Positions 7,833-62,919 of a stretch of DNA of 64,000 nucleotides are shown piece after piece. The stretch is from Eledone cirrhosa (taxonomy: Eukaryota): the NCBI GenBank assembly GCA_964016885.1, contig OZ024740.1:268894001-268958000 (forward strand), in the 5' to 3' direction. Within the stretch, counting starts at the first letter, position 1. Each line of letters begins with the position of its first letter. A program made the translations under genes and the position numbers. The notes beneath the pieces are model-generated. The model was given only the letters and a program-made list of their open reading frames with translations. It searched no databases and was not told where the DNA came from.

Positions 7833-8011
7833 TGTTTCTACTTTTAGCACAAGGCCAGCAATACCCAGTGTATTACTGGTACCTTATTTTATCGACCCCC
7901 TAAGGATGAAAGGCAAAGTTAACCTCGGCGGGTTTTGAACTCAGAATGGCAAGGGCCATAACTCTATGCGTCAGAGCATGGCGTCCAACCCTCTACCGAT
8001 ACTGCCAATCC
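7833..8011 (-). mobile_element. tRNA-derived SINE, same family
   Basis: Reverse complement of the 7549 copy. TSD AAATGATAAT (7823-7832 and 8012-8021). Confidence 0.92.
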
Positions 8012-8179
8012 AAATGATAATGCCAGCAAAACATGAACAATTCTCATAAGAAAGCAACTAGAAACTGATTCTCTGTATAATAAATAATAAAGTGCATAGT
8101 CCAAGCTAAAGAAGATACAATTCGATACGGAGAAACAAAAAGAAAGTTGACATTAAAATGTCTCACCAAAATATATTGG

Positions 8180-23900: not shown

Positions 23901-24393
23901 AGGCTCTTGCACCCTCCACCCCTATCCGCTAATCCCACACAGTCCCAGCGTGCATCTAAGATCCCGTTCCAGTCGCCCACTAACACTAAAGAGCGGGACG
24001 TTCCAAGAAAGGTCTCCAGACGCCGGAAGAAATCAGGCCGCCCTGCTCCTGTCGGGGCATAGACGGCCACTAGCCTGAAAGCTTGCCCGTCTCCGCTGGT
24101 CACGTCCAGCACCACCAGCTTACCCTCTGGGTCCAGGAAGATGGCCCGTATGGCGAGATCCAAACCTCTCCGAAAAAGCACAGCAACTACTCCCCCGATC
24201 CAGGACGGCTGGGAGATGCGTACACATCGTAGCCGCCGAAGATTGGTGCGAAGGCCCGTGCTTCGGAGATTCTGGTCTCGCTGATGGCCACTACATCTAT
24301 GTTTAGTGACCTGAGGTCGTTGAGCAGGTGACCTTGCTTCCATGACGACCCCAAGCCACGCGCATTTATGCTGCCTATTCTGAGTGAGGTCAT
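20975..24393 (-). pseudogene. LINE ORF2: AP endonuclease, reverse transcriptase, zinc finger (frameshifted)
   Basis: SINARGL, ISET, AVYAP, GDWN, SYLD, TDH (APE); NFRPITLLN, DQSKAFDRV, VRQGCPLS, AYADD (RT); CPRC..ETVLHALVHC. Frame breaks near 24.2 kb and 21.6-21.9 kb. Confidence 0.93.
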
Positions 24394-24428
24394 GTTTAAA
24401 ATAGAGTGGAAAAGATGGGAAAGACCAC

Positions 24429-26500
24429 TTACCGTACTTTTGGTAGAGGAGGGATGGTTTTTACATCCCTTTTCACTTGATCGTCCCTTCGGCTGGTCGT
24501 CGGCTCTTCTATGAGTATGTCCGAATATACTCTTCGGTTGATAGTTCCTCCTAGGTCTCTGAAATCACCAACTGCGTTGGGGAATTTCGTTTTAATGTTT
24601 GTGTATTGTTTCTGTGCTATTTTTAGCAGTCTTATGTTAGTTGGCGTTTTGATTGGTGCTGGTATTATGTAGTCGTGTTGTGAAATGTCTGTGTTCAATT
24701 ATGTAAGTCATTAGTTTCTTGTTGTGTGTATTTATTGCCGTGCATTTGTTTTTCTGGGGGTGGGGTGTGGTTCTGCTATTTTCTTGTCGTTGTTGCTGGG
24801 TGTGTGTGTTTTGTTGTTGTGTTTGCGATGTTGGTGCTTGTGGTGGTGGTGTTTAAGGTGTTGTTGGCGGTGGGGTTGTCGCCGGTGGTGATGGTGGTGC
24901 TAGTGTGGGTGGTGATGGTGTTGGTGGTGTTGCTGCTGTGAGTCTCTTTGCAGTAGACTTTACCCTTTTCTCATTTCTTTCCTCCCTTTTCAAAGGCGAC
25001 GATGCGCTACTTCTGCGTTTGTGCCTTCTTACGACCTTTTGCCATCCCTCTCCCACCTCACACTCCATGTCTGATTCTGTGAGGTCGGGGAGGGGTACCA
25101 GCTCCACTCTTTCACTTGTTGTTGTTGGTGATGTTTGCACTGGAGTCTCTCTTGCAGCTGCATTTGGTATTGCTGTTGTTGTTGTTAATACTTCCACTGC
25201 TGCTGCTGTTTTTGATTTCCGTGGCATGGGTATGGGTGCCACGGACCTATCGTTCCTGGTTGCCGCTTGTCCTGTTGCTGGTAGCCGTGGAGCCGGTTTC
25301 GGAAGGAGGGAGGTTTTCTCCTTTCTCAGGGTCTTCTCGTTGCAGAAGGCTCTGAGGTGAGTCTTCGATCCACAGCGAAAGCATTTCGGGCGTTTGCCCT
25401 CAACACTTATGGGCAGTTGAGTGCCGTTATCGAAGTCTATCACATCCGGGATGCACTCCTGGTTGGTTTGGATTAACATCTCAATGGAGGTGCCGACCCA
25501 ATCTTCTCTTACTTTTTTCTGTACTTGCAGTACAGTTGTTTTGTCCTCGATTCCGACGAGGACAGACGCGGCCAGCCAAGAAGGGGCCATCCCGGGGGGG
25601 GGGGGGGGTCAGTTTGACCCTCACAATTTTTTGCCCGCAGTAGGAGGGCACCAACACCATTTCCTCGCTCCTTAGGGTCACTAGGGATTGAGCCTTTGCC
25701 TCCTGGGGTGTGGCAAAATGTACGTCTACGGTGGCATATTTCTTGCCTCGGGTGATGTGCGTTTTCCGCTGCCACACAGACCCCAAGGCTTTTTGTATTT
25801 GAGCCTCTGTGGCTCTTTCAACCCTACGGGATTCTGTACTTACTGTACGGTACGTGACCGTACAGTGCTGTTGGGTTTCGAAAAATTTTTCCGCTGCCTT
25901 GCAGATTGCTCGGTGTCCACTTTTTGTCACCATCTTCTTCGCTTCCTCTAATTCCTCATTTGTTATGAGGATTGTTTCCAGGTTCTTCGCGATACCTGCA
26001 AACGAGATTGGTTTTTCTTTGCTGCTGTTGTTGTTGTTGTCGTCAGAGCTGCTGTTACTTTTGTTGTTGCTGCAGGTACTACGACTACTGCCGCCGCCGC
26101 TGTTGCTGTGGTTGTTGTTGTTGTTGTTGCTGCTGCTAATGCTGTTGTTGTTTATGCTGCTGCTGATGCTGTTGCGGCTGCTACTGTTGTATTCATTGTC
26201 ACTGTTGCTGTTGTTATTACGGCTGCTACTGCTATTATTCCTGACGTCAGACGAATGAAATAGGTTTTCGTATTTCCCGCACACCTGTTTCGTCGTTGTC
26301 GTCGTCGTCGTGGAGAAATCTTGCACGCTTTGCACGAGACTTTTCTTTTCTGTCGTCGCTTGCGAAAGAGAAGGGAGGGAGAGAGACACATTTAAAGAAG
26401 GGAGGGAGAGAGACAATCTTCTCCCTGCTGTAGTGACGATTGAGGAAGAAGAAGACGGAATGAGTGGGAGTGGCCTATGAAAATTCTTTTTCGTAGCCAT
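24429..26500 (-). pseudogene. LINE ORF1, gag-like with CCHC zinc knuckle (frameshifted)
   Basis: ATG at 26500, Asn/Ser low-complexity N-terminus, CFRCGSKTHLRAFC knuckle, Thr/Pro-rich tail. Frame break at the G15 run 25594-25608 and again near 24.7-24.85 kb. Confidence 0.85.
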
Positions 26501-26770: not shown

Positions 26771-28329
26771 TGACACGAGAGTGCAAGATAAGGAGAGGGT
26801 GAAAATTAACCGATACCAGGATTTAGTTTGTCCCCTTTATTGTTTGTCCTTACCCTGATATCCCTCTCCGTCATATTGCGAAAAGTGAAAGCAGGATACA
26901 AGGTGGGAAGAGGCGAGATTACCATGAACCACTCCTCTTCATGGACGATCTTAAACTCTTTGGGAAGGGTGAGAAGAAGTTGGATGTACTTGTTGCCACT
27001 GTCGGAATTTTCAGCAATGATTTATGTATGGAATTTGGTGTTCATATGAGTCGAAGCCTAGTGATGATGAGGGGAAGCAACGGAATCCAGATACCAACAG
27101 GTGAGATGGTAAGGGAAATTGACACTGAAGAGGGATACAAATATTTAGGTGTTCTGGAAGCAGATGACATCAAGAACAAAAACAAAATGAAGGAATTGAT
27201 TAGATCTGAGTACATAAGGAGAGTAAGGAACATACTAAAATCACATCTAAATAGTAGGAATGTCATAAGTGCAGTAAATTCCCGAGCTGTGTCTATTATT
27301 AGGTACAGTGCGGGAATTCTGAAATGGAATGTTCCTGAACAAAAAGAAATGGATAGGAAGACTAGGAAGCTAATGACTATCTACAACATGTTCCACAAGA
27401 GGAGTGATGTTGATAGACTCTACTTAAAGAGATCTAGGTGGAATAGGTCTTATCAGCATAGAGGACTGTGTTCAGATGGAGAAAACAGTTTGCACAAAAT
27501 TTTACTGAACTGGAAAACAACAGACCAGGGGATATCCAAGGAAGAAATAACAAGGAGGAAGAGCAACCTTCATGAAAATTCCCTTCATAGCACCTTCTTT
27601 AAAAAAACGGAATTCAAAGATCCAGTAGGAGACCTTAAAAAAGCTACAGAAGGAATGCTAATGGCTGTGCAAGCGCAAGCCCTCAGAACGAAGTGGCTGA
27701 AACACCATATTGACAAGGAGGAGGCTAGCCCACTGTGCAGGATCTGTGGAGAAAGAGAGGGGACTGTGGCTCACATTGTATCCTAGTGTAAACACCTAGC
27801 CCAGACTCACTATAAAGGCTGGAGATGTGATATGATAGGCAGGTTGATTCACTGGCACCTATGCAAAGTAAACAATTTACCACATTCTGAGAAGTGGTAT
27901 GAACATAAGCCAGAGTCGGTGAAGTTAAGGTGCTATGGGATTTTAGGATACAGATGGACAAGAAATTAGATCGTGCCTGCTTGTAGATGTAGCCTGCTCA
28001 GTTGACACGAGAGTGCAAGAAAAGGAAAGGGAGAAAATTAACCGATACCAGGATTTACAGTGGGAGTTACAAAGGATTTGGAGCTGCCATGAGATCAAGG
28101 ACGTGCCGATTGTCATATGTGCACGAGGTACTATATTAAAGAGTTTCCCAGGATGGTTAAAGAAGAATAGTCCAGCGAAGTTTTTTGGAAGTCTTCAAAA
28201 GTCATGTTTGCTGGGAATAGGAAGAATTCTCCGATACGTCCAGAATGTCTGAGGCTGCAGGTAGCGGCTTGATATTAATTTCAACAAACTTTCCAGTTAA
28301 ATAACGTTAATGACTGAGACTCAAAGAAC
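26771..28329 (+). mobile_element. 5'-truncated R4/Dong-like LINE copy
   Basis: FMDDLKLF, YKYLGV, CRICGEREGTVAHIVS and the RLE region; closely similar to 18610-20233 including the 3'UTR; ends in AAT-like repeats. Confidence 0.92.
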
Positions 28330-29207: not shown

Positions 29208-29246
<39 letters not shown>

Positions 29247-29383
29247 CCACTATATATACATTCATTTATATATCGCTATTTCAGAGCACCAATTCTAATT
29301 TTAAATTTCTGCTTGACCGGCAGCCGCTCTGTATAATCAGTCCCTGATTATTAATAGAATTCTATAAGAATCAAATATTCATG

Positions 29384-29478
29384 ATTTTCAGCAAACAGGT
29401 GGAGTACTTAGCTTTGATAAGTACCAAAAAGTACGAAACAGGGCTCTGTCAGCTTTATCTCCCCTGTTTACTGAAAAT
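29384..29478 (+). ncRNA. Type I hammerhead ribozyme (U3-A8 core) with extended stem I
   Basis: AUUUUCAGCAAACAGG U GGAG UACUU AGCU UUGAUAA GUAC CAAAAA GUAC GAAAC AGGGCUCU GUC AGCU UUAU CUCC CCUGUUUACUGAAAAU; predicted cleavage after C29450. Confidence 0.9.
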
Positions 29479-30429
29479 TTAAAGTAAGGGAGACTGTCGC
29501 TACTCTAAAACAGAAACGTAAGGTCTTCGAAATGCTTTTAATTAAGCATACAGTGTATTGCAAAATCCAATATATATACATTCATTTATATATCGCTATT
29601 TCAGAGCACCAATTCAAATTTTCAATTTCTGCTTGACCGGCAAACGATCTGTATAATCAGTCCCTGATTATTACTAGAATACTATTAGAATCAAACATTC
29701 ATGATTTTCAGCAATCAGGTTCAAGTACTTAGCCTAGATAAATACCAAAAAGTACGAAACAGAGCTCTGTCAGCTTTATCTCCCCTGTTTGCAGAAAATT
29801 TAAAGAAGGTGAGACTGTCACTACTCTAAAACAATAGCGTAAGGGCTTCGAAATGCTTTTAATTAAGCATACCGTGTATTGCAAAATACACTATATATAC
29901 ATTCATTTTAATATCGCTATTTCAGAGCACCAATTCTAATTTTCAATTCCTGCTTGACTGGCAACCGCTCTGTATAATCAGTTCCCGATTATTACTAGAA
30001 TTCTATAAGAAACAAACATTCATGATTTTCAGCGTAAGGTCTTCTAAATGCTTTTAATTAAGCATACAGTGTGTTGGAAAATACACTATATATACATTCA
30101 TATATATATCGCTATTTCAGAAAACCAATTCTAATTTTCAATTTGTACTTCACCAGCAACCGCTCTTTATAATCAGTTCCTGATTACTACTAGAATTCTA
30201 TAAGAATCAAACATTCATGATTTTCAGCAAACAGGTGGGGTACTTAGCCTTGATAAGTACCAACAAGTACGAAATAGAGCTCTGTTAGCTTTATCTCCCC
30301 TGTTTGCTAAACATTTAAAGTAAGTGAGACTGTCACTACTCTAAAACAATAGCGTAAGTTGTTCGAAATGCTTTTAATTAAGCAGTCAGTGTATTGCAAA
30401 ATCCACTATATATACATTCATATATATAT

Positions 30430-30467
<38 letters not shown>

Positions 30468-30468
<1 letters not shown>

Positions 30469-30843
30469 ACAGTGCAGAGAAGTACGGAAAACATCGGCCT
30501 CGGGATGGTGTCTACATTTTGGTCTTATACAAAACATTCGTCGTAGATTACCAGGTTTTTTATCCGTGCGAAGAAAATCAATTCTTTATCTCGAAATAAA
30601 TACCTTTGTTTATATTTACTAATTGAATATATATTTATATATATATATATATAATTATATATTCGTGTACAGATATTTTTGCATACACGATTAGTAAATA
30701 TAAACAAAGGTATTTATTTCGAGATAAAGAATTGATTTTCTTCGCACGGATAAAAAACCTGGTAATCTACGACGAATGTTTTGTATAAGACCAAAATGTA
30801 GACACCATCCCGAGGCCGAGGTATTCCGTACTTCTCTGCACTG

Positions 30844-30846
<3 letters not shown>
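30468..30846. repeat. Fold-back element (~155 bp arms) at the orientation switch of the array
   Basis: AACAGTGCAGAGAAGTACGGAA...TATTTACTAAT mirrored by ATTAGTAAATA...TTCCGTACTTCTCTGCACTGTT; (TA)n on both sides. Confidence 0.93.
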
Positions 30847-30917
<71 letters not shown>

Positions 30918-33900
30918 ATATATAAATGTATATATAGTGGATTTTGCAATACACTGACTGCTTAATTAAATGTTTGATTCTTATAGAATTCTAGTAATAA
31001 CCAGGAACTGATTATACAGAGCGGTTGCTGGTTAAGCACAAATTGAAAATTAGAATTGGTTTTCTGAAATAGCGATATATCTATGAATGTATATATAATG
31101 TATTTTGCAATACACGGTATGCTTAATTAAAAGCATTTCGAAGCCCTTACGCTATTGGATTAGAGTAGTGACAGACACACCTACTTTAAATTTTCTGCAA
31201 AGAGGGGAGATAAAGCTGACAGAGCTGTGTTTCGTACTTTTTGGTATTTATCAAGGCTAAGTACTTGAATCTGATTGCTGAAAATCATGAATGTTTGATT
31301 CTTATAGTATTCTACTAATAATCGGGAACTGATTATACAGAGCGGTTGCCGGTCAAGCAGAAATTGAAAATTAGAATTGGTGCTCTGAAATAGAGATATT
31401 AAAATGAATGTATATATAGTGTATTTTGTAATACACTGTATGCTTAATTAAAAGCATTTCGAAGCCCTTACTCTATTGTTTTAGAGTAGTGACAGTCTCA
31501 CTTACTTTAAATTTTCAGCAAACAGGGGAGATAAAGCTGACAGAGCTCTGTTTCGTACTTTTTTGTATTTATCAAGTCTAATTACTTCACCTGATTGCTG
31601 AAAATCATGAATGTTTGATTCTTATAGAATTCTAGTAATAATCGGGAACTGATTATACAGAGCGGTTGCCGGTCAAGCAGAAATTTAAAATTAGAATTGG
31701 TGCTCTGAAATAGCGATATTAAAATGAATGTATATATAGTGTATTTTGCAATAATCTGTATGCTTAATTAAAAGCATTTCGAAGCCCTTACGCTATTGTT
31801 TTAGAGTAGTGACAGTCTCACCTTTTTTAAATTTTCTGCAAACAGGGGAGATAAAGCTGACATAGCTCTGTTTCGTACTTTTTGGTATTTATCAAGGCTA
31901 AGTACTTGAACCTGATTGCTGAAAATCATGAATGTTTGATTCTTATAGAATTCTAGTAATAATCAGGAACTGATTATACAGAGCGGTTGCCGGTCAAGCA
32001 GAAATTAAAATTAAAATTGGTGCTCGGAAATAGCGATATATAAATGAATGTATATATAGTGTATTTTGCAATACAATGTATGCTTAATTAAAAGCATTTC
32101 GTAGACCTTACGCTATTGTTTTAGAGTAGTGATAGTCTCACTTACTTTAAATTTTCAGCAAACTGCGAAGAAAAAGCTGACAGAGCTCTGTTTCGTACTT
32201 TTTGGTACTTATCAATGCTAAGTACTCCACCTGCTTGCTGAAAATCATGAATGTTTGATTCTTATAGGATTCTAGTAATAATCAGGAACTGACTATACAG
32301 AGCGGTTGCCGGTCAAGCAGAAAATGAAAAAGGGAATTGGTTCTCTGAAATGGCGATATATATATGAATGTATATATAGTGGATTTTGCAATACACTGTA
32401 TGCTTAATTAAAAGCATTTAGAAGACCTAACGCTGAAAATCATGAATGTTTGATTCTTATAGAATTCTAGTAATAATCGGGAACTGATTATACAGAGCGA
32501 TTGCCGGTCAAGCAGAAATTGAAAATTAGAATTGGTGCTCTGAAATAGAGATATTAAAATGAATGTATATATAGGGTATTTTGTAATACACTGTATGCTT
32601 AATTAAAAGCATTTCGAAGCCCTTACTCTATTGTTTTAGAGTAGTGACAGTCTCACTTACTTTAAATTTTCAGCAAACAGGGGAGATAAAGCTGACAGAG
32701 CTCTGTTTCGTACTTCTTGGTATTTATCAAGGCTAAGTACCTGAACCCTATTGCTGAAAATCATGAATGTTTGATTCTTATAGAATTCTAGTAATAATCG
32801 GGAACTGATTATACAGAGCGGTTGCCGGTCAAGCAGAAATTACAATTAGATTTGGTGCTCTGAAATAGCGATATATAAATGAATGTATATATAGTGTATT
32901 TTGCAATACACTGTATGCTTAATTAAAAGCATTTCGTAGACCTTACGCTATTGTTTTAGAGTAGTGACAGTCTCACTTACTTTAAATTTTCAGCAAACAG
33001 CGGAGATAAAGCTGACAGAGCTCTGTTTCGTAATTTTTGGTACTTATCAATGCTAAGTACTCCACCTGCTTGCTGAAAATCATGAAAGTTTGATTCTTAT
33101 AGGATTCTAGTAATAATTAGGTACTGACTATACAGAGCGGTTGCCGGTCAAGCAGAAAATGAAAAAGGGAATTGCTGCTCTGAAATAGCGATATATATAT
33201 ATATATGAATTTATATATAGTGTATTTTGCAATACACTGTATGCTTAATTAAAAGCATTTCGAAGACCTTACCTTATTGTTTTAGTGTAGTGACAGTCTC
33301 ACTTACTTTAAATTTTCAGCAAACAGGGGAGATAAAGCTGACAGAGCTCTGTTTCGTACTTTTTGTTACTTATCAAAGCTAAGTACTCCACCTGTTTGCT
33401 GAAAATCATGAATATTCTATTCTTATAGAAATCTATTAATAATCAGGGACTGATTATACAGAGCGGTTGCCGGTCAAGCAGAAAATGAAAAAGGGAATTG
33501 GTGCTTTGAAACAGCTATATATATATATGAATGTATATATAGTGTATTTTGCAATACACTGTATGCTTAATTAAAAGCATTTAGAAGACCTTACGCTGAA
33601 AATCATGAATGTTTGATTCTTATAGAATTCTAGTAATAATCAGGAACTGATTATACAGAGCGGTTGCCGGTAAAGCAAAAATTGAAATTAGAATTGGTGC
33701 TCTGAAACAGCGATATATAAATGAATGTATATATAGTGTATTTTGCAATACACTGTATGCTTAATTAAAAGCATTTCGAAGCCCTTACGCTATTGTTTTA
33801 GAGTAGTGACAGTCTCACCTACTTTAAATTTTCTGCAAACAGGGGAGATAAAGCTGACAGAGCTCTGTTTCGTACTTTTTGGTATATATCAAGGCTAAGT

Positions 33901-36493
33901 ACTTCACCTGATTGCTGAAAATCATGAATGTTAGATTCTTATAGAATTCTAGTAATAATCAGGAACTGATTATACAGAGCGGTTGCCGGTCAAGCATAAA
34001 TTGAAATTAGAATTGGTGCTCTGAAACAGCGATATATAAATGAATGTATATATAGTGTATTTTGCAATACACTGTATGCTTAATTAAAAGCATTTCGTAG
34101 ACCTTACGCTATTGTTTTAGAGTAGTGAGCGTCTCACTTACTTTAAATTTTCAGCAAACAGCGGAGATAAAGCTGACAGAGCTCTGTTTCGTAGTTTTTG
34201 GTACTTATCAAGGCTATGTACTCCACCTGCTTGCTGAAAATTATGAATGTTTGATTCTTATAGGATTCTAGTAATAATCAGGAACTGACTATACAGAGCG
34301 GTTGCCGGTCAAGCAGAAAATGAAAAAGGGAATTGAAGCTCTGAAATAGCGATATATATATATGAATGTATATATAGTGTATTTTCAATACACTGTATGC
34401 TTAATTAAAAGCATTTCGAAGACCTTACCTTATTGTTTTAGTGCAGTGACATTCTCACTTACTTTAAATTTTCAGCAAACAGGGGAGATGAAGCTGACAG
34501 AGCTCTGTTTTGTACTTTTTAGTACTTACCAAGGCTAAGTACTCCATCTGCTTGCTGAAAATCATGAATATTTGATTCTTATAGAATTCTATTACTAATG
34601 AGGGACTGATCATACAGAGCGGTTGCCGGTCAAGCAGGAAATGAAAAAGGGAATTGGTGCTCTGAAATAGCTATATATATATATGAATGTATATATAGTG
34701 TATTTTGCAATACACTGTATGCTTAATTAAAAGTATTTAGAAGACCTTACGCTGAAAATCATGAACGTTTGATTCTTATAGAATTCTAGTAATAATCGGG
34801 AACTGATTATACAGAGCGGTTGCCGGTCAAGCAGAAATTGAAAATTAGAATTGGTGCTCTGAAATAGCGATATTAAAATGAATGTATACATAGTGGATTT
34901 TGCAATACACTGTATGCTTAATTAAAAGCATTTCGAAGCCCTTACGCTATTGTTTTAGAGTAGTGACAGTCTCACCTACTTTAAATTTTCTGCAAACAGG
35001 GGAGATAAAGCTGACATAGCTCTGTTTCGTACTTTTGGGTATTTATCAAGGCTAAGTACTTCACCTGACTGCTGAAAATCATGAATGTTTGATTCTTATA
35101 GAATTCTAGTAATAATCAGGAACTGATTATACAGAGCGATTTCCGGTCAAGCAGAAATTGAAATTAGAATTGGTGCTCTGAAATAGCGATATATAAATGA
35201 ATGTATATATAGTGTATTTTGCAATACACTGTATGCTTAATTAAAAGCATTTCGTAGACCTTACGCTATTGTTTTAGAGTAGTGACAGTCACACTTACTT
35301 TAAATTTTCAGCAAACAGCGGAGATAAAGCTGACAAAGCTCTGTTTCGTACTTTTTGGTACTTATCAAGGCTAAGTACTCCACCTGCGTGCTGAAAATTA
35401 TGAATGTTTGATTCTTATAGAATTCTATTAATAATCAGGGACTGATTATACAGAGCGGTTGCCGGTCAAGCAGAAAATGAAAAAGGGAATTGGAGCTCTG
35501 AAATAGCGATATATATATATGAATATATATATATGAATATAGTGTATTTTGCAATACACTGTATGCTTAATTAAAAGCATTTCGAAGACCTTACCTTATT
35601 GTTTTAGTGTAGTGACAGTCTCACTTACTTTAAATTTTCAGCAAACAGGGGAGATAAAGCTGACAGAGCTCTGTTTCGTACTTTTTGTTACTTATCAAAG
35701 CTAAGTACTCCACCTGTTTGCTGAAAATCATGAATATTTGATTCTTATAGAATTCTATTAATAATCAGGGACTGATTATACAGAGCGGTTGCCGGTCAAT
35801 CAGAAAATGAAAAAGGGAATAGGTGCTCTGAAATAGCTATATATATTTATGAATGTATATATAGTGTATTTTGCAATACACTGTATGCTTAATTAAAAGC
35901 ATTTAGAAGACCTTACGCGGAAAATCATGAATGTTTGATTCTTATAGAATCTAATAATAATCAGGAACTGATTATACGGAGCGGTTGCCGGTCAAGCAGA
36001 AATTGAAAATTATAATTGGTGCTCTGAAATAGCGATATAAATTGAATGTATATATAGTGTATTTTGCAATACACTGTATGCTTAATTAAAAGCATTTCGA
36101 AGACATTTCGCTATTGTTTTAGGGTAGGGACAGTCTCACTTACTTTAAATGTTCAGCAACATGGGACATAAAGCTGACAGAGCTCTGTTTTGTACTTTTT
36201 AGTACTTATCATGGCTAAGTACTCCATCTGCTTGCTGAAAATCATGAATGTTTGATTCTCATAGAATTCTAGTAACAATCAGGAACTGATTATACAGAGC
36301 GGTTGCCGGTCAAGCAGAAAATGAAAATTAGAATTGGTGCTCTGAAATAGCGATATATATATATGAATGTATATATATATGTATTTGCAATACAATGTAC
36401 GCTTAATTGAAAGCATTTCGAAGACCTTACCTTATTGTTTTAGTGTAGTGACAGTCACACTTACTTTAAATTTTCAGCAAACAGGGGAGATAA

Positions 36494-36538
36494 AGCTGAC
36501 AGAGCTCTGTTTCGTACTTTTTGGTACTTATCAAAGCT
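36494..36538 (-). ncRNA. Type I hammerhead ribozyme core, intact copy
   Basis: Minus strand AGCU UUGAUAA GUAC CAAAAA GUAC GAAAC AGAGCUCU GUC AGCU. About 14 further variants at ~31214, 31534, 31854, 32175, 32690, 33010, 33336, 33852, 34171, 34492, 35009, 35328, 35658 and 36172. Confidence 0.9.
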
Positions 36539-37654
36539 AAGTACTCCACCTGTTTGCTGACAATCATGAATGTTTGATTCTTATAGAATTCTAGTAATAA
36601 TCGGGAACTGATTATACAGAGCGGTTGCCGGTCAAGCAGAAATTGAAAATTAGAATTGTTGCTCTTAATTAAAAGCAATACCTGCCCTGTTTGCTGAAAA
36701 TTGAAAGTAAGTGTGACTGTCACTACTCTAAAACAATAGCGTAAGGTCTTCTAAATACTTTTAATCAATGCTTTTTAATACAGTGTATTGCAAAATACAC
36801 TATATATACATTCATATATATATCGCTATTTCAGAGCACCAATTCTAATTTTTAATTTCTGCTTGACCGGCAACCGCTCTGTATAATCAGTTCCTGATTA
36901 TTTCTAGAATTCTATTAGAATCAAACATTCATGATTTTCATCAAACAATCGGAGTACTTAGCTTTGATAAGTACGAAAAAAGTACGAAACAGAGCCTCTG
37001 TCAGCTTTATCTGCCCTGTTTGCTGCAAATTTAAAGTGAGACTGTCACTACTCTAAAACTATAGCGTAAGGTCTTCGAAATGCTTTTTATTAATCAAACA
37101 GTGTATTGCAAAATACACTGTATATACATTCATATATATATCGCTATTTCAGAGCACCAATTCTAATTATATATATATACTAGCAGATTTACCCGGCGTA
37201 GCTCTGCGTTTGAAATTATGCTAAGAATATACAGCTAGGAAGTAAAAGAAGAACATTATTTGTCCCCAACCTGTCAAAATAAGCAGAAGTCTTCAATAAT
37301 TAATGCAAACAAATATTTAGTGCAATCTTTGTACACATAAAACTATTTCTGATAATGAAGGAAAACACTGAACAGGATGTAGTTATATAAAATATAAAGA
37401 CGTTGCAAATCTGTAAAAAAAACAGGCAGTTTTGCTAAATTACAAAAAGTTGTAATGAAAGCAGAGTTGTATACAAACAAAAAAGCAATGAGAGTAGAAT
37501 AAGAGAAAATCTATTTTTTGAGAGCATCCTTTGCTGTGTATGGTTAATTTTTTAACTTATAATCTAAAATATCCTGCATGACATCTTCATTGGTATGTTT
37601 TGTAATGAGTAAGGTGAAGTCAAGGCAGAGCTGTAATAAGTTTTTTTGTTAACA

Positions 37655-40600
37655 CTAAAGCACTTCAGGATAGACGATATTCTTTGTTTTTCTTTTCGGA
37701 ACAAACGCAAAGAGATTATCTCGACAGCCAACTCGTGAGCAGGCAACGTAGAATTGTCCGTGCGAAAAGCAAGGTTCATCCAAGTGAATTCCAGCGACGG
37801 ACAGAGTTTGACCTTGCGACTTGTTTATGGACATCGCAAAGGCAACACGAAGGGGAAATTGGGTTCGGCGAAAGGAGAAGGGAGTTTCCACGCCTGATGT
37901 AGTCAGACTAATTTTTGTTATTATCACAACCTCGCCTTTTCCACATCCGGATAGAATGTTAGCGTCAATACTAAGTGGAGACAGTTTTTTAATCACAAGG
38001 CGTGTACCATTGCATAGTTTTGGAGGAGTGATATTTCTCAGCAAAATAACTGGCGTTCCCTCTTTCACAACCAATGTATTAGGAGGTAAACCAGGAGGAT
38101 TTAAATAATTTAGAAATTCAACTGGATAGTTGACCGCATCCTGTGGATCACATACAGTATCAATAGATTTATATATCCGTGGACATCCAGGAAGAAGCTG
38201 AAGAAGCTGATCGTTAATACAGCTAACCGTGATATTTTGGGGTGCAAGAATGGCTCTTTCGCATAGCCAATCAAGATTCGTATAGTTATCACGCAAGTTC
38301 GGGAATACACTCGCCTTGAGATCATCGACAGTTTCAACTACATTGCAGATGTGATCAATTGCTGTGCGTCCACCTGTATCCGGATGTAGGTTACCCTCTC
38401 CTATTGTAAGAATGTCTCCAGAAAATGTGATGACAGAGGGTCCCCATGCAGCCTTGCACGCATGTTGGTAGTTAGTCTTAATGATGTCACTTGTCGCCAC
38501 AATGGTGAAGACTCAAGATATGCATTTACCGCATCTGCTCTTGTTCCTTTCGGTATTATAGGAAGAGTCTGTCTGAAGTCTCCTGATAGCAGAAGGGTGA
38601 CACCCCCCATAACATCACTACAATCCCGTATGTCTTGAAAAGCCCTGTCTAGTGCATCAAGAGCACCTTTGTGCGCCATTGTGCACTTATCCCAAACAAT
38701 AAGGTGACACCTTCGCAGCAGATGAGCCCTGTTAGAGTCTTTGGTGATATGACAAGTAGGAGTTTCCAATTTTGCCAAATCAAGGGGCAATTTAAAAACT
38801 GAATGTGCCGTTCTTCCACCAGGAAGCAAAGTTGCTGCGATTCCAGAGGACGCAACTGCTATTGCTATGTCCTTATTCTGTCTAACCTTTGCAAGAGGTT
38901 TAGTAACGAAAGTTTGTCTGTCCTCCCTGGAGCATCGAGGAAAAATATGCCACCTCTTGTTTGAAATACTAATTTAGTAATGGTGGTATAAGCCAGTCGC
39001 TGATCAGCTACAAGTTTTGGCTCATTATCTGTGACGTAGATGGCAGTGGATTGGCAGTATCAGTAGAGGGTCGGACGCGATGCTTTCTAGCATAGAGTTA
39101 CGTCCCTTTACGGACTGAGTTCAAATGCCTCCAAGGTTAACTTTGCCTTTCATCCTTACGGGGTCGATAAAATAAAGTACCAGTAATGTACTGGGTAATT
39201 GCTGGCCTTGTGCCTAAAGTAGAAACAATTATCTGTGACGTAGAGGCCGAGATCATGGATGTCATAAGAAGTCTCCTGTATGATATCTGTGGGAAGTTTG
39301 TTTGAGTCTGTGCGATGAGTTTCTGGTAAACCGTAGTCACGTAAAACCTTTCCTCCAATCAGAGCTAACTTGTCCTCAATATCAATGAGAGCTCTGTTGT
39401 ATAATTCATTACTAAAGCCGACCTCTATTTCTGGAAGCATCAATTTTGCTTGGTGTCTGTAGCTGTCTGTTAGTTCATCCCTATATTTCATCCACAAGGA
39501 CAGAGGATCAGATAAGTTGCACGTGTGCAAAAGTACCGCAAATACATTTTTTAGGCTGGCAGGTGAATGTGAAAGAGCAACTTCCGCCATCGTTGCATCC
39601 CACTGCGAACCATCTTCCAGCAATCCACGCCTCAAACATGCCTTTGGGTATGTTAGAAGAACTTGTCCGTCTAACGTTCAGAGATCATTCAAGCAGGTAG
39701 GTCCTCTGACCTCATGTAGTAGCATGCTAAGATGGAAGCACTCGTGTTGGTTTGGGGGCACAGTATAAACTCTGTCCAAGCACTCGTTGAATTTGAGGCC
39801 TGGATAACCTTCGACACACTGTCCTGTTTTTCTTCATTTCCATGTATTTTTGTCCCAGGTATAGTAAGATGGGACTTGTGGATATAGTAAGGTTTTAGCA
39901 AATGGATCTTCTTGACATAGTTTACAGAAAGCGGTAAGAGTAGTATCCTTTGGTTCTTGTGCAACTGAGCAGCTGATGCATTCGTAAAATATACTCCCTG
40001 ACCGTTCTCCAGGTGCACTTGGAGTTTTTGAACAGCAGGATGCGTTGATGTATAAAAAATCCGAAAATCCGCCAGAACGCTTCATTAGAGTTAATGTATA
40101 TTCCAGTTTGGTACTGGGCCACTTCATCTCGGCTGTTTTCCCGAAGTAATCCAAACGTAGCAGCATCAGAGCCTTTAGTAATGTACTTACAAATGTATTT
40201 TATAGATTTAATCGAATTACAGTATTCTACGTTTATGTGTGCATCAAGAATCTTTATAAGGAGTGGATTATATGGAACAACTCATCTGTTGTCAACCTCA
40301 TGTTTGCCAACCCTTGCTGTGAATCCACCATCTTCGGGTCTTCTCCGGCGATATAGTGGGTATCTGTCATGGCCAGTCTGAGTGTCCTTAAGGAACTGTC
40401 GGGGAAATTTAGTTGAGCACTTAGACTTGTCCTTAACACACGGTAGGTTGTTGAGAAATCCATGTCCACATGGGCCAGCATCTTGAAATTTTTCGAAAAA
40501 GAACCGAGGACTTCCTGTGAAAGATGAAGGCAGGATGCACAACAGTCCAATACTATCAGGATCTGCATCATTGTTCATTCCATCACGAAGGTGAATGTAA

Positions 40601-41832
40601 GTGTCACAGCGAAGTTGTTTCTGATTAAGTCGAATGAAGCATAATCTCTCGGACTCCATTTTTGCGAACATGTCAACTGCAAATTGATTGAAGAGGTCTT
40701 GTGATCGGTGCAGCTGGTTGAAGCAGTTGTCGCAGACCATGAATCGGAAAGCGTAAAAATCCATACACGTGACAATTTTCGTGGTATGCTCATCTTGGTT
40801 TGTGGAATTAATTTGATGAATTCCGAAATGGTATCCATCCTCACCATAAACAAATAATAGCGGATACTGGAGTGCGTCGTAAGATCGATGGGTTTCACTC
40901 ATTCTGTTAAGGCTGTTGTCTCGTCGCTTGATAATAATGTCTCTCTTGTTGTGCTGCTCTCCACTAATAACGATGGCTACCTCATTACAAGTAGGTGCAT
41001 TATACCGGCCCGCATGCTCCGCAGATGGTCTCTCATCAGCGTAAATGATGATATCGTAATTTGGCGAAGGTGCTTCTTCTGAAGAATACTTGAAGCTTTT
41101 AATGTAGCTATTGTTAGAGTGAAGCATGTCTTGGAGGTCAATCAAGAGTTCCAGTTTAGTGTCTGAAGTGTACGATTGCCTTAGATCTGCTTGCTGATGA
41201 CAGTTAACAATAAAGTAAACCTGTAAAAGTTGTGGCTCTTCAGTAGGCAACGGTTGCAGTGATCCAATGAGATGATACACCTGGCCCTGTACTTTGAAAG
41301 TCGGCATAAATCCATCTTCCTTCAGACGTTTTGCACCGAAAGAGGTCATTTGAAACGCAATGTTGTACTGTCGGATATGCTTCAGAAAATCACGTGATTG
41401 TGAATGCTTGCTTGTTAGAAGCATCTGGAGAGGTTGCGGTGGTTCCCTAAGGGTGGGTAAATTAACCTTACCGTTGGAGCAGCACATTCCAACTGATCTC
41501 CCCCCTCCCTCCCCCACACACACTTTTTAGCTTTACAATGTTGGCAAATATTTTACATGGCATATATTTGAATATCAGGATGGATTTGATAGTTTACATA
41601 AGGGTCATAATTAACTGCCTTAAGGTACCATCGTGAGCGTGATGCCTTTGAAATACTCCGCGATAAAGCTCTACGTTGAGCGTTAACGCTCAGCGGCGGA
41701 CAAAGATGTTGCAATAACTGTACTCACTGCATTTAGCGATTGTCTATTTTCGGTTATCGGTGGAGCGTCATTTACATGCATTGTTTTCTTCGACCGAGAG
41801 CCAATATGTGCATACTTTCTTTTACGGGGCAT
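37655..41832 (-). pseudogene. Helitron RepHel (HUH replication initiator plus PIF1-family helicase), disrupted
   Basis: CCSNGKV, YNIAFQMTSFG, SYDALQYPLLF, LPSSFTGSPR, KYICKYITKGSD, GGRTAHS, GDFRQTLP, LCNGTRL, QFPLRVAFAMSINKSQGQT, FSHGQFYVACSRV. Multiple frameshifts and a SINE insertion. Confidence 0.95.
39041..39227 (+). mobile_element. tRNA-derived SINE inserted into Helitron ORF
   Basis: Same SINE family; 17 bp TSD ATTATCTGTGACGTAGA (39024-39040 and 39228-39244). Confidence 0.94.
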
Positions 41833-43273: not shown

Positions 43274-43387
43274 AATATAAAAATTTCAAGTTATCAATAA
43301 TGTAGTGATAATATATCGTCACGTTAGAGATGAACAGCGTACGTGTAGGTTTGCTCGACGAGTATAAATTATATTCCGGAGAAAATG

Positions 43388-43976
43388 TAGAAAAGATGAA
43401 TATAAGATGAAAGTGCTTTTATAAAGGAATTTATTAGGTATTGACATATGTTTCTGTAACAGACGGAATACCTATGTATCGCTGCTTGCATAATCATATA
43501 ATGTTAGCAAGTATTCGATAGCAAATGTATAATCAGTTGTCACTTCTTCAGAAATATTGGATAAATTGGAAAAAATCAGAAAAATTAAAGTATTTATATT
43601 AGTTGTAAGAAAGGAAGAAGAGAAGTATAATATATGACAGATGGCAATTCAATTTGCTGGTAAACAAGTACATAGAGGTTTTTAATGAGAATACAATGAG
43701 TATATGGCTTATTTTATCTAAATAAGAATTTTTGGGAGTGCCTATTTTAATCTATATTTGATCAATTGAACAATGGACAGGGCTGGTCGTTTGGTGTAGT
43801 AGTATTAATACATATCTCTGAAGAAGTGACAACTGATTATACATTTGCTATCGAATGCTTGCTAACATTATATGATTACGCAAGCAGCGATACATAGGTA
43901 TTCCGTCTGTTACAGAAACATATGTCAATACCTAATAAATTCCTTTATAAAAGCACTTTCATTTTATATTCATCTT

Positions 43977-43981
<5 letters not shown>
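43388..43981. mobile_element. Fold-back element with ~165 bp inverted arms, each with a hammerhead-like motif
   Basis: 43388-43552 is the reverse complement of 43817-43981. The + arm reads CTGAAGA(43818) AGTGACA...TGTTACA GAAAC ATAT GTC(43926). Confidence 0.82.
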
Positions 43982-44023
<42 letters not shown>

Positions 44024-44089: not shown

Positions 44090-44090
<1 letters not shown>

Positions 44091-44355
44091 CTGGAGTTTC
44101 AATATTATGAAGAAGAGAGACAGTTTTATCCGTACATCTGTTTATTAATATAATTCTGTTTACAAAAAAAGTCGGTGGGTATCAGATCAACCACCCTTCT
44201 TTAATTGAATAATATATATATATATATATATATTATTCAATTAAGGAAGGGTGGTTGATCAGATACCCACAAACTTTATTTGTAAACAGAATTATATTAA
44301 TAAACAGATGTACGGATAAAACTGTCTCTCTTCTTCATAATGTTGAAACTCCAGT
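44090..44355. repeat. Fold-back with (TA)n centre, ~120 bp arms
   Basis: ACTGGAGTTTCAATATTATGAAGAAGAGAGACAG...AATTGAATAA(TA)nTTATTCAATT...CTGTCTCTCTTCTTCATAATGTTGAAACTCCAGT. Confidence 0.9.
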
Positions 44356-44499
44356 CAACGATAACATCCCAAGGAATGCAAATCGCGGAGTGCATATTTA
44401 CATCTATTTATTATATTATTCTGCAGATATTCCACCATAGATAATCAATACATAATTATGTAATAAACAAATGTACATATAAAACCGTCTCTCTTCATC

Positions 44500-44540
<41 letters not shown>

Positions 44541-44546
<6 letters not shown>

Positions 44547-47330
44547 CATTATGAAGAGAGAAGAAACATTTAGATATAATTAGTAATAAAATGTATCATA
44601 CCTAAACTGTTCCTAAATTCCTCGACTACGTAGTTTCGTGGCATAAACAAAAACAATATATCAAAGATATAGAGTCCTTGCGAGGTCTGCCGACTTATCA
44701 AGAGGATACCTCATTTTACTAGTCTCAAGAACGCGTCTACACGACGTGAGAAAGAATCCCAAAAGGCGGAGGGGGAGATAGTCACGCGATATAACGGTCG
44801 AGAAACAGAGCTAAGCCTCTTATAACCACGAAGAAAATACCACGGAGGCGGAGGGGGTATTCATATCGAGGCCGTAGAAGAGGTAGTGAAGAAGGCGAGA
44901 AGTATGAGTAATGGAAGCTTTCCAGTTGTCCCCACACTTCAAAGATTGCTCGACCAGAGGGAGTTATTAATATATTTAGAAACACACAGATACATGCGGA
45001 CACACACATATATACATGAATGCATCCGCACCCAACTGTTAGTTAAGGGTGCCAACTTCACCGATGTTGCTCAATGAATGACTGGGACAGACCAATTCAG
45101 TTTGAACCAGACTGAACCAGTATCAGAGTTAAAAATACATTATGAAGAGAGAAGAAACATTTATATATAATTAGTAATAAAATGTATCATACCTAAACTG
45201 TTCCTAAATTCCTCGACTACGTAGTTTCGTGGCATAAATAAAACAATATATCAAAGATATAGAGTCCTTGCGAGGTCTGCCGACTTATCAAGAGGATACC
45301 TCATTTTACTAGTCTCAAGAACGCGTCTACACGACGTGAGAAAGAATCCCAAAAGGCGGAGGGGGAGATAGTCACGCGATATAACGGTCGAGAAACAGAG
45401 CTAAGCCTCTTATAACCACGAAGAAAATACCACGGAGGCGGAGGGGGTATTCATATCGAGGCCGTAGAAGAGGTAGTGAAGAAGGCGAGAAGTATGAGTA
45501 ATGGAAGCTTTCCAGTTGTCCCCACACTTCAAAGATTGCTCGACCAGAGGGAGTTATTAATATATTTAGAAACACACAGATACATGCGGACACACACATA
45601 TATACATGAATGCATCCGCACCCAACTGTGAGTTAAGGGTGCCAACTTCACCGATGTTGCTCAATGAATGACTGGGACAGACCAATTCAGTTTGAACCAG
45701 ACTGAACCAGTATCAGAGTTAAAAATACATTATGAAGAGAGAAGAAACATTTAGATATAATTAGTAATAAAATGTATCATACCTAAACTGTTCCTAAATT
45801 CCTCGACTACGTAGTTTCGTGGCATAAATAAAACAATATATCAAAGATATAGAGTCCTATATCTTTGATATATTGTTTTTGTTTATGCCACGAAACTACG
45901 TAGTCGAGGAATTTAGGAACAGTTTAGGTATGATACATTTTATTACTAATTATATCTAAATGTTTCTTCTCTCTTCATAATGTATTTTTAACTCTGATAC
46001 TGGTTCAGTCTGGTTCAAACTGAATTGGTCTGTCCCAGTCATTCATTGAGCAACATCGGTGAAGTTGGCACCCTTAACTCACAGTTGGGTGCGGATGCAT
46101 TCATGTATATATGTGTGTGTCCGCATGTATCTGTGTGTTTCTAAATATATTAATAACTCCCTCTGGTCGAGCAATCTTTGAAGTGTGGGGACAACTGGAA
46201 AGCTTCCATTACTCATACTTCTCGCCTTCTTCACTACCTCTTCTACGGCCTCGATATGAATACCCCCTCCGCCTCCGTGGTATTTTCTTCGTGGTTATAA
46301 GAGGCTTAGCTCTGTTTCTCGACCGTTATATCGCGTGACTATCTCCCCCTCCGCCTTTTGGGATTCTTTCTCACGTCGTGTAGACGCGTTCTTGAGACTA
46401 GTAAAATGAGGTATCCTCTTGATAAGTCGGCAGACCTCGCAAGGACTCTATATCTTTGATATATTGTTTTTGTTTATGCCACGAAACTACGTAGTCGAGG
46501 AATTTAGGAACAGTTTAGGTATGATACATTTTATTACTAATTATATCTAAATGTTTCTTCTCTCTTCATAATGTATTTTTAACTCTGATACTGGTTCAGT
46601 CTGGTTCAAACTGAATTGGTCTGTCCCAGTCATTCATTGAGCAACATCGGTGAAGTTGGCACCCTTAACTCACAGTTGGGTGCGGATGCATTCATGTATA
46701 TATGTGTGTGTCCGCATGTATCTGTGTGTTTCTAAATATATTAATAACTCCCTCTGGTCGAGCAATCTTTGAAGTGTGGGGACAACTGGAAAGCTTCCAT
46801 TACTCATACTTCTCGCCTACTTCACTACCTCTTCTACGGCCTCGATATGAATACCCCCTCCGCCTCCGTGGTATTTTCTTCGTGGTTATAAGAGGCTTAG
46901 CTCTGTTTCTCGACCGTTATATCGCGTGACTATCTCCCCCTCCGCCTTTTGGGATTCTTTCTCACGTCGTGTAGACGCGTTCTTGAGACTAGTAAAATGA
47001 GGTATCCTCTTGATAAGTCGGCAGACCTCGCAAGGACTCTATATCTATGATATATTGTTTTATTTATGCCACGAAACTACGTAGTCGAGGAATTTAGGAA
47101 CAGTTTAGGTATGATACATTTTATTACTAATTATATCTAAATGTTTCTTCTCTCTTCATAATGTATTTTTAACTCTGATACTGGTTCAGTCTGGTTCAAA
47201 CTGAATTGGTCTGTCCCAGTCATTCATTGAGCAACATCGGTGAAGTTAGCACCCTTAACTCACAGTTGGGTGCGGATGCATTCATGTATATATGTGTGTG
47301 TCCGCATGTATCTGTGTGTTTCTAAATATA
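44541..47330. repeat. 590 bp tandem repeats arranged as a large palindrome, hammerhead in each full unit
   Basis: Units start at 44541, 45132 and 45722; inversion centre GATATAG-AGTC-CTATATC at ~45855; ~2.5 reverse units follow; (TA)n on both flanks; copies nearly identical. Confidence 0.96.
46414..46501 (+). ncRNA. Type I minimal hammerhead ribozyme (U3-A8 core, long loop II)
   Basis: UCCUC UUGAUAA GU(C)GGCA...UGCCAC GAAAC UACGUA GUC GAGGA. Other copies at 47005-47091 (+), 44619-44706 (-) and 45210-45296 (-). Confidence 0.82.
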
Positions 47331-47418
47331 TATATATATATATACGTAGGTCGCGGGTTGAGTCGGGGATAACCACAGTAAGTAAGGTGCTCAATACATG
47401 GCAGAGTAAACATTTTTT

Positions 47419-47521
47419 ATTTTATAGAAGGAGCTTCTACAGGACTAGTACTGTTTCATTCAGATGAAGATTTCATCTGAATGAAACAGTACTAGTCCTG
47501 TAGAAGCTCCTTCTATAAAAT
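47419..47521. repeat. Perfect ~50 bp-arm hairpin
   Basis: TTTTATAGAAGGAGCTTCTACAGGACTAGTACTGTTTCATTCAGATGAA-GAT-TTCATCTGAATGAAACAGTACTAGTCCTGTAGAAGCTCCTTCTATAAAA. Confidence 0.93.
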
Positions 47522-47545
47522 ATATATATATATATATATATATAA

Positions 47546-47815: not shown

Positions 47816-48732
47816 ATATATAAGCTTTCGTATGTGTGTGGATATTTTTACTTCAACAATATATGTAGTTGTTACATTATGTATCATAGAGAATCCACTT
47901 CTACTTTCTGGCTTTGTTCTTTATATCTGGTTAGTTTATTTCGAATGGTTTTAACTCCAGGATTATGACACCCTGGAGGTGAAAATAACTTTTACTTTGA
48001 TATTTTTAACCAATGTTATATATCGTTTCATTATCTTTCATTAAGAGATTTTCAGCCGTTCAATAATAACAGCGAAACAAAATATATATAATGTGTACCT
48101 GAATATATTTCTAATCTATATCTGAGAAAATTGTTTAAGCTAAAGGCTGTCATTACTAAACTTCTCATATGCATATTTCTGGAATTCAAAGTTACCTATA
48201 ATTGACTGAATTATAGTCTCCCATGATATATAACGAAATTGTCATAAGATATACAAGAATGTGTACTTCTTGATGTTGAAGCCCCAATTTAGCTATAGTA
48301 TTTTTAAAGTGCATAACGTCTGAGAGTAATCTCATCTCTAGAAGTTTTTATTTCTTCTGCACTTATTTACATTAACTCTGGCAAGTATGGAGTAGGTTTT
48401 GCTTCACCAAAAAAGTACGATAACACTAAAAATACGAAAATAATATACAATGTACGTAGCCGAAAGATCGGACTTTGAAGCGCGGAGAATATAGAATTAA
48501 TGTAATGGATGATTTGCTCGTGTGCTGAGAACTGTAAAATAGCTTATAAAATAGTGTGAAGACTCTTAAAAGGCGGAAAATGCTGTTGCCATCGGCTGCT
48601 ATGAAGAATTGAACCTCATAGCGGCCGATGGCAACTTTTTCCATCTTACATGTGTCTTCGCCCTATTTTATAAGTGATATTTTATAGCATCTCATCGCTT
48701 GAGTGCATTATCTTTTACATTAAGAAAATAAT

Positions 48733-59208: not shown

Positions 59209-59380
<172 letters not shown>

Positions 59381-59463
59381 GGAGGTGAGTTTTATTGTAG
59401 TACAATAAAGCAATGCAGATATCGGATAAGAAGCACTCTACAGTTTGTAGGACTGGAGTATGC

Positions 59464-59778
59464 ATAATATAAGATCAAAAGATGGTTAAAGGAGTTCCAT
59501 GTATTTTATTATGCGCATTTCAAAAACAAACATCATCATGCAATAATATTTGTGTTTTCATCAGATAAAACAGGAGAACATGATATGAAGGCTAAAAAAC
59601 ACTTGTGGATAGTGCAGTTTTAAATCAACAAACTGCACTATCCACAAGTGTTTTTTAGCCTTCATATCATGTTCTCCTGTTTTATCTGATGAAAACACAA
59701 ATATTATTGCATGATGATGTTTGTTTTTGAAATGCGCATAATAAAATACATGGAACTCCTTTAACCATCTTTTGATCT

Positions 59779-59786
<8 letters not shown>
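59464..59786. repeat. Perfect fold-back (~157 bp arms, ~10 bp loop) between (TA)n tracts
   Basis: ATAATATAAGATCAAAAG...GATAGTGCAGTTT / AAACTGCACTATC...CTTTTGATCTTATATTAT. Confidence 0.95.
59679..59747 (+). ncRNA. Type I minimal hammerhead ribozyme, canonical core
   Basis: GUUUUAU CUGAUGA AAACACAAAU...GUUUGUUUUU GAAAU GCGC AUA AUAAAAU. 7 bp stem I, palindromic stem III AUGCGCAU; mirror copy at 59503-59571 (-). Confidence 0.8.
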
Positions 59787-62574: not shown

Positions 62575-62919
62575 TTTCCACGAGCCAAAGTATCGTCTTC
62601 CTGTCTTCCTCCGGTTGCAACGTTTTTTGAAATATCCACTTCTGCGTCTACAGATTGACTTTGATAGATTCAGAAGATCCCGTTAAGGGTGAAAGCAGCG
62701 ATTCTTTGCTTAAACTTTAATCTGTTATTTTAATAAATATATATATATATATATATTTATTAAAATAACAGATTAAAGTTTAAGCAAAGAATCGTTGCTT
62801 TCACCCTTAACGGGATCTTCTGAATCTATCAAAGACAATCTGTAAACGCAGAAGTGGATATTTCAAAAAACGATGCAACCGGAGGAAGACAGGAAGACGA
62901 TACTTTGGCTCGTGGAAAC
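62575..62919. repeat. Fold-back (~165 bp arms) with (TA)n centre
   Basis: TTTCCACGAGCCAAAGTATCG...GTTATTTTAATAAA(TA)nTTTATTAAAATAAC...CGATACTTTGGCTCGTGGAAA. Partial family members at ~29005-29125 and ~12768-12811. Confidence 0.93.

Follow-up and report, generated by a model that had tools for sequence, protein, structure and literature searches.

A stretch of about 2.8 kb in Eledone cirrhosa consists of units of some 590 nt, each with a hammerhead motif, set in two arms of opposite orientation, and the question raised by this locus (44541..47330 of the window, i.e. of the whole 64,000-nt stretch of contig OZ024740.1 that was analysed) is what kind of element builds such an array and how its two arms come to be joined. 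In the present study, we conclude, with a probability of about 0.88, that the array is a non-autonomous Penelope-like element (PLE), or non-LTR retrozyme, with a structured non-coding unit and a U3-A8 hammerhead. A first, sequence-only reading had suggested a young non-autonomous Penelope/retrozyme family, and this suggestion is supported by the copy number, the (TA)n targets, the build of the arms, the one-sided tail and the hammerhead.

A two-armed array of hammerhead units

The units were numbered on a reference copy U (window 46580-47169, plus strand), in which the predicted cleavage site is U507. The left arm, which is antisense, runs U454-590, U1-590 and U1-587 and then enters (TA)n, and the right arm, which is sense, runs U460-590, two full units and U1-162 before its own (TA)n (Table 1). 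The unit measures 590 or 591 nt and the pieces of both arms are 97.7-100% identical to U, confirming the earlier description of about 2.2 and about 2.5 near-identical units in opposite orientation between (TA)n flanks. The palindrome of 2.8 kb described at the same time is real as regards its inverted arms but is asymmetric, with arms of 1,315 and 1,475 nt and different end sites. At the head-to-head junction, a 2-nt microhomology lies around a 4-nt spacer within the stem II extension, and the junction has left two central partial units that hold only the 3' half of the ribozyme. The four complete hammerheads, two per strand, were recovered by descriptor scan.

The earlier reading had also seen no credible open reading frame, and indeed the longest stop-to-stop frame at the array is 86 aa, by which a coding or endless-frame role was ruled out. 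The element contains no ORF for a reverse transcriptase (RT) with a GIY-YIG endonuclease and hence is not an autonomous EN+ PLE, and no Penelope ORF was found near the array by tblastn within the 64-kb window.

Table 1. Features of the array, in window positions
Feature	Positions	Strand
Left (TA)n target tract	44503..44543	
Left arm: 2 full units and a 137-nt 5'-truncated unit; 3' end is End 1 (U587) at 44544	44544..45858	-
Right arm: 132-nt partial unit, 2 full units and 162 nt more, to the end of the tail; 3' end is End 2 (U162) at 47331	45857..47331	+
Head-to-head junction: unit position 454 (-) joined to 460 (+)	45851..45858	
Right (TA)n target tract	47332..47345	
Hammerhead 1, type I, U3-A8 core; predicted cleavage after 44624	44619..44706	-
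Hammerhead 2; predicted cleavage after 45215	45210..45296	-
Hammerhead 3; predicted cleavage after 46496	46414..46501	+
Hammerhead 4; predicted cleavage after 47086	47005..47091	+
Predicted 590-nt monomer, cleavage site to cleavage site	46497..47086	+
80 nt from cleavage site to End 1: long hairpin, which also competes for the stem I 3' strand	47087..47166	+
165-nt Penelope-type tail, End 1 to End 2, with two conserved hairpins	47167..47331	+

Spread of the family and its two fixed ends

A search of the unit against the genome, which the sequence-only reading had called for, revealed a dispersed, repeated, high-copy family with thousands of motif matches, in which the present array is ordinary, as one of thousands of loci. 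An 18-mer at the first end of the unit has 8,003 exact matches in the 3.0 Gb genome and a 22-mer of the ribozyme 3' half has 7,743 (reversed-pattern controls, 0 for each), and the DNA search with the unit gave at least 95 genome matches. The first 100 motif matches fall into 49 clusters within 47.6 Mb, of which 18 switch strand from minus to plus and 0 from plus to minus, and the whole family was extrapolated to ~8,000 units at roughly 3,900 loci. About half of the loci are head-to-head inversions, and (TA)n stands at the 3' flanks of the family insertions. Older subfamilies that are ~80% identical (2,373 first-look candidates) keep the unit length and the ribozyme. Two samples were studied: a position-ordered sample, in which all 49 clusters were retrieved as 48 loci (L194 being a local duplication counted twice), and a sample of 50 BLAST-selected loci that includes the present array. 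An exact 23-mer of the unit had 0 matches in viral contigs and 0 in metagenome contigs. Public runs gave 14 of 24 listed rows with at least half of the words of the unit, under 11 organism labels, which could stand for related hosts, mixed samples or transfer, and no RNA-type records were among the listed runs with the unit. In run X1, the unit was present as a single circularly permuted 621-nt contig, which is equally compatible with a tandem array and with a circle, and there was no depth on the flanking high-copy repeats.

The arms of the family end at two fixed sites, each followed by (TA)n: U587 (End 1, 80 nt after the cleavage site) and U162-164 (End 2, 245 nt after it), and the spacing between them is the 165-nt tail. 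Across the 98 loci, 53 of the 58 two-armed insertions have one arm at each end, and the same end was used twice in 1. The two samples agree, since one of each end was observed in 26/28 two-armed insertions of the position-ordered sample (0 with the same end twice, 2 with one arm ending elsewhere) and in 27/30 of the BLAST-selected sample (1 with End 1 twice, 2 other); single arms of the position-ordered sample ended at End 1 in 10 cases and at End 2 in 11. As in Penelope insertions, the 3' ends thus fall at two fixed sites and the tail is one-sided, and a 5'-truncated partial tandem stands beside an inverted 5'-truncated copy. The 5' truncation points are spread over the whole unit, and arm lengths are mostly independent, the End 1 arm often being far longer or far shorter. 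Microhomology of at least 2 nt was found at 20 of the 33 resolved junctions (56 in total) against 15.6% for random joins, by a method that takes the best of many haplotypes and leans high.

The inverted arm might instead arise by self-priming, in which the first cDNA folds back and the tail is removed or kept by endonuclease resolution, as proposed in PMC3846280, which favours self-priming, and in PMC8557442. Such a route would account for the private variants common to both arms, and it fits the present array, with arms in register within 8 nt and a 2-bp fold-back at the junction, as one of 6/53 insertions in register within 40 nt. However, arms in register are not significantly more frequent than expected (permutation p = 0.06 and 0.26 in the two samples), and the arms of 47/53 insertions are out of register, which argues against self-priming for most loci. 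Moreover, the array at 44541..47330 carries opposite alleles between its arms at all three mirrored positions: from the outside in, the left arm reads long-short-short for a private two-change allele and the right arm short-long-long, a pattern at odds with either arm having been copied from the other. The mirrored alleles would fit two homogeneous arms from two monomers with a flip of the inner segment, whether biological or by assembly, and they would also fit a reciprocal template switch. Overall, fold-back of the first cDNA seems unlikely to us as the origin of the inverted arm.

The same flip bears on the reading of the locus as an assembly or library artefact, a fold-back chimera, which we judge to be very improbable. 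It is true that a near-perfect 2.8-kb palindrome is at issue, with the assembly as its sole witness, and that a flip of the inner segment during assembly could have produced the mirrored alleles. Against this, the two flanks are unlike, the arms have different lengths and alleles and stop at the two family-wide sites, and the 58 two-armed insertions in 98 loci are built alike with junctions at other positions. The concern about a fold-back chimera is thus largely answered from the assembly itself.

Several loci show more than one insertion. In L175, three two-armed insertions of different ages are stacked within one (TA)n tract, and L043 holds two insertions; the insertions therefore regenerate their own target. 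In L179, two stretches (287-506 and 3533-3752) share U293-509, including the ribozyme, at 90% and end ~16 nt later, with a terminal sequence that is also that of a relic at window 47500-47522; this element may represent a related family, or a chimeric one, in which the first end is much shorter.

The ribozyme, the folded RNA and the sharing of variants

In the earlier reading, Penelope-like elements were said to carry minimal type I hammerheads in their pLTRs. The motif found here is of type I, with N3-U4-G5-A6-N7-N8-A9 and a 3-8 pair, G12-A13-A14, A15.1-U16.1, H17 and three stems, but it is not minimal: according to the descriptor scan, a 5-bp stem I and a U3-A8 core are combined with a bulged 6-bp stem II extended by ~45 nt, a palindromic stem III of 2-3 bp and a GUC triplet. 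Two consecutive complete motifs are present in each arm, as in retrozymes. No Rfam hammerhead match was obtained at the array, either window-wide at E<=1 or locally at E<=10, likely because of the long stem II and the variant core. The core is intact in 194 of the 205 copies that span the ribozyme, and the cleavage-site columns are nearly invariant among family copies, with no scar. A U-A, U-G, C-G series in stem I of the older subfamilies amounts to one compensatory pair, and stem covariation was no better than in shuffles (51/500). The ribozyme is kept across subfamilies about 20% apart, and conservation of the core could reflect youth and descent instead of selection. Folding into the active hammerhead costs 6.5-12.7 kcal/mol relative to the free ensemble, and this fold is not the predicted ground state, because both stem I strands have decoys; therefore, cleavage may be weak or assisted by protein or by dimer formation. 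The stem III palindrome is predicted to pair between copies at -14.3 kcal/mol. Arm starts show no excess at the cleavage site, with 4/165 arms at unit 503-513 against 3.1 expected.

The monomer (46497..47086, plus strand) folds at -171 kcal/mol (z = -5.45), and as a circle the sense strand reaches -166.8 kcal/mol against -130.7 for the antisense strand. In the predicted fold, End 2 lies within unpaired A/U sequence immediately downstream of the second long hairpin of the tail, and End 1 lies in a partly paired stretch after another hairpin. Predicted pairs were kept by 21 of 26 lineage-defining substitutions compared with 42/126 single-locus ones (p = 1e-5; p = 0.06 on transitions only), and the tail hairpins were kept mostly through one-sided changes, with a two-sided change in 1/51 pairs. 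These results bear on the reading of the array as satellite or MITE-like DNA, spread as DNA with an incidental hammerhead. Tandem units, inverted arms and the lack of a protein would suit such an element, but fixed 3' ends with random 5' truncation, an RNA structure that is strand-specific and kept by lineage-defining changes, and the absence of terminal inverted repeats common to different loci all oppose it, and we give it hardly any weight. The sequence-only reading had further proposed that a transcript would release the monomer or fold into double-stranded RNA. A read-through transcript of the whole insert is predicted to be 97% paired, so that its ribozymes would be buried; monomer release and dsRNA would be alternatives, set by the position of the transcription start. 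Thousands of ready-made long inverted repeats in the genome would, if transcribed, be a possible source of dsRNA. A C-rich motif has two copies per unit (window 46855-46869 and 46936-46949); we take it to be GC-box-like and presume that it could belong to an internal promoter.

Variants were surveyed in 307 pieces from 95 loci, with pieces below 90% identity or below 50 nt dropped and four indel-prone zones masked. At multiply covered positions, 29 private variants were common to all copies, 9 occurred in some of them and 127 in a single copy, and 5 of the 9 variants in some copies sit in loci with several insertions or a duplication. Divergence, calculated with 5 multi-insertion loci left out, was 0.39% within an arm, 0.34% between arms and 2.11% between loci; private multi-copy variants were present in both arms in 12/13 cases, and variants common to several loci were fixed within the locus in 196/253. 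A variant is born in one unit and yet fills the array, which, we infer, requires a monomer bottleneck followed by re-amplification, and a circle would be the simplest route for both. A single circle copied once would be insufficient, given that some variants occupy runs of 2-3 units (L006, L071, L173, L211), some are specific to one arm (L007) and some loci have arms of different haplotypes (L022, L078); L171 and the present array likewise hold variants confined to a run of units or to one arm.

The chief alternative is copying from linear, uncleaved multi-unit transcripts, with the hammerhead as a passenger, or active at a later stage, and with arrays renewed by template jumps or by insertion into existing copies. 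We consider this a serious possibility, although at clearly less than even odds. For the Anolis Poseidon element (PAc) in vitro, the available text of PMC11167929 reports unprocessed RNA as the main substrate, ribozyme mutants that inserted normally and no reads that ended at the cleavage site; the unfavourable hammerhead fold, the runs of units with a common variant and, in L171, one pair of variants in register point in the same direction. The opposing evidence is that the 29 private variants in all copies, against 9 in some, need the monomer bottleneck, that subfamily markers are nearly always all-or-none within a locus, and that the ribozyme has been retained while the subfamilies diverged.

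Two other signals were set aside. Within-array polymorphisms at unit 483 and 79 in the BLAST-selected loci are probably due to ascertainment, and 483A is absent from the listed multi-copy loci of the position-ordered sample. Derived A>G changes outnumber T>C (15 vs 6, p = 0.002), but an A-to-I editing signature was not accepted because G>A and C>T are skewed too (9 vs 4) and the polarisation is rough.

Autonomous elements, a proposed mechanism and known systems

A search for adjacent Penelope RT and GIY-YIG ORFs had been suggested; none is present in the window, but autonomous RT plus GIY-YIG elements of like layout occur elsewhere in the genome. GIY-YIG first-look candidates numbered 10,595, of which 150 were scored and 50 loci examined. 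In L121, a 938-aa frame has RVT_1 and C-terminal GIY-YIG domain matches, and the CX4CX2C linker read from this frame is given as a mark of Neptune and Nematis in the accessible part of PMC8557442; by this linker, the L121 protein is probably of Neptune/Nematis type, and an element of this kind is the likely driver. A hammerhead with the U3-A8 core is also present in the pLTR of the L121 family, whose copies terminate ~82 and ~150 nt past the cleavage site (a tail of ~68 nt). The second of these ends resembles End 2, and in L126, L130 and L132 each end is used by one arm. Alignment of the unit with 49 GIY-YIG loci gave nothing beyond microsatellite look-alikes among the matches listed, and no alignable autonomous element was found in 9 loci from the short-stem-II hammerhead pattern, through the neighbouring relic at 44230-44505, or through the older subfamilies in hit lists that carry no flanks; at family loci other than L170-L227, tblastn detected no PLE ORF. 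Since L121 is alike in layout but unalignable, a shared mechanism is indicated, not the identity of the partner. In L126 and L136, the autonomous PLE coding regions are themselves inserted as head-to-head inversions.

Herein, we propose a mechanism for the non-autonomous PLE. First, the element would borrow the RT and GIY-YIG protein of a Neptune/Nematis-type element, and multi-unit loci would be transcribed outward. Second, the hammerhead, with the help of protein or of palindromic stem III sequences that pair with those of neighbouring copies, would free monomers, and these would form circles or be copied repeatedly in some other way, a step that we favour by a small margin. Third, an RT-EN dimer at the tail would, rather more probably, nick the self-complementary (TA)n on both strands and prime one cDNA per site, at End 1 and at End 2. 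Both cDNAs would run round the template, break off independently and join head-to-head by microhomology, and a single arm would result when only one cDNA survived. A stricter version, offered tentatively and with the odds somewhat against it, is an obligately asymmetric integration complex, in which an RT-endonuclease dimer sits on one RNA tail with one subunit per end and each subunit rolls round a hammerhead-made circle. The circles would usually be the same or sister monomers and sometimes two different ones, as the mirrored alleles at 44541..47330 suggest. If this complex is real, the tail, the tandem arrays and the head-to-head inversions would all come from one mechanism, and the hammerhead would gain a role that in vitro work did not find.

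The comparisons with known systems draw on the available parts of the sources cited. Animal non-LTR retrozymes (PMC7229834; bioRxiv 10.64898/2026.07.22.740005) are likewise non-coding tandem arrays, from dimers to multimers, in which every unit has one type I hammerhead; they have a structured monomer and co-occur with autonomous PLEs. The 590-nt unit falls inside the 51-972 bp retrozyme range of bioRxiv 10.64898/2026.07.22.740005 but is longer than the ~170-400 nt circles shown for invertebrate retrozymes and is described here as a genomic sequence. The present family differs from them in its U3-A8 core, extended stem II, head-to-head inversions, one-sided 165-nt tail and lack of an alignable parent pLTR among our findings; the word 'inverted' does not occur in the main text of PMC7229834 as available. 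Of nine Xenopus retrozymes, one cleaved in vitro (bioRxiv 10.64898/2026.07.22.740005). EN+ Neptune and Nematis PLEs (PMC8557442, PMC3846280) share partial tandems, 5' truncation, an inverted 5'-truncated head-to-head copy, a tail at one end, the (TA)n bias and a hammerhead upstream of the ends, whereas the family has no ORF, both of its arms are multi-unit and its tail is 165 nt against 30-40 bp. A target-site duplication is unreadable within (TA)n, as PMC8557442 says of its own elements. Chlamys MRC1 (PMC8557442) is likewise a non-autonomous PLE with multicopy head-to-tail insertions, but such elements resemble autonomous families at the 3' end and belong to a clade without canonical hammerheads.

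In PAc (PMC11167929), two internal RT start sites are also spaced by, and define, the tail, the target is AT-rich, both strands are cut and extended, and a dimer is predicted; these start sites are adjacent and inside the ORF, unlike those of the family. The start site was alike on top and bottom strands in PAc, whereas the family pairs the sites one per strand almost always, so that one-end-per-arm pairing is not predicted by the PAc data in that source. The hammerheads of the Schistosoma Cercyon PLE (PMC4209133) resemble ours in their covariant U3-A8 core, short stem I, long stem II, palindromic stem III region and opposite-strand pairs 100-700 bp apart; they are heterogeneous and mostly single, in contrast to the homogeneous, multimeric family with its stem III of 2-3 bp. 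A circle model for elements with U3-A8 hammerheads was proposed in PMC4209133.

Thus, tandem plus inverted insertion, the one-end tail, the (TA)n bias, U3-A8 cores, the circle model and a non-autonomous PLE origin of retrozymes are already in print in these sources. The family, its 165-nt tail and the one-end-per-arm count were not found in searches of the open-licence literature, and what is new here is the two fixed ends, 80 and 245 nt after the cleavage site, one per arm. Tandem and inverted insertion, the one-end tail and the role of the hammerhead are stated as open in the available parts of PMC8557442, PMC3846280 and PMC11167929. With a young, short family and thousands of nearly intact insertions, the Penelope insertion mechanism can be counted, and the one-end-per-arm rule, the independence of arm lengths and the sharing of variants each separate models.

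The window holds other ribozyme arrays and relics. An older first array at 29244-37168 has ~321-nt units that are 87-92% identical, U3-A8 hammerheads with a short stem II and weak Rfam HH9 matches below the gathering score; its arms meet head-to-head at 36671/36679 and end at unit ~180 and ~207 beside (TA)n. Directly right of the array, a small head-to-head relic at 47345-47522 has 105-nt inverted arms with the ribozyme 3' half, one arm being ~70 nt longer and both ending in (TA)n, which is the same one-sided tail. To the left, older inverted relics lie at 44090-44503 and 43385-43984; two of their ends resemble End 1 (a pyrimidine run and then CATAAT), with 171 first-look candidates elsewhere at 72-90% identity. 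At 59380-59786, an inverted pair, of which one arm extends ~85 nt further, has type I hammerhead-like motifs with a C3-G8 core and an 8-bp stem I. Further short inverted repeats are located at 62575-62918 (with (TA)n at the centre), 7554-8012 and 48497-48723. Broken frames at 17169-20185, 20975-24460, 26827-28252 and 37655-41526 are, judging by their motifs, presumably remains of non-LTR retrotransposon RT/endonuclease genes and of a Helitron-type helicase.
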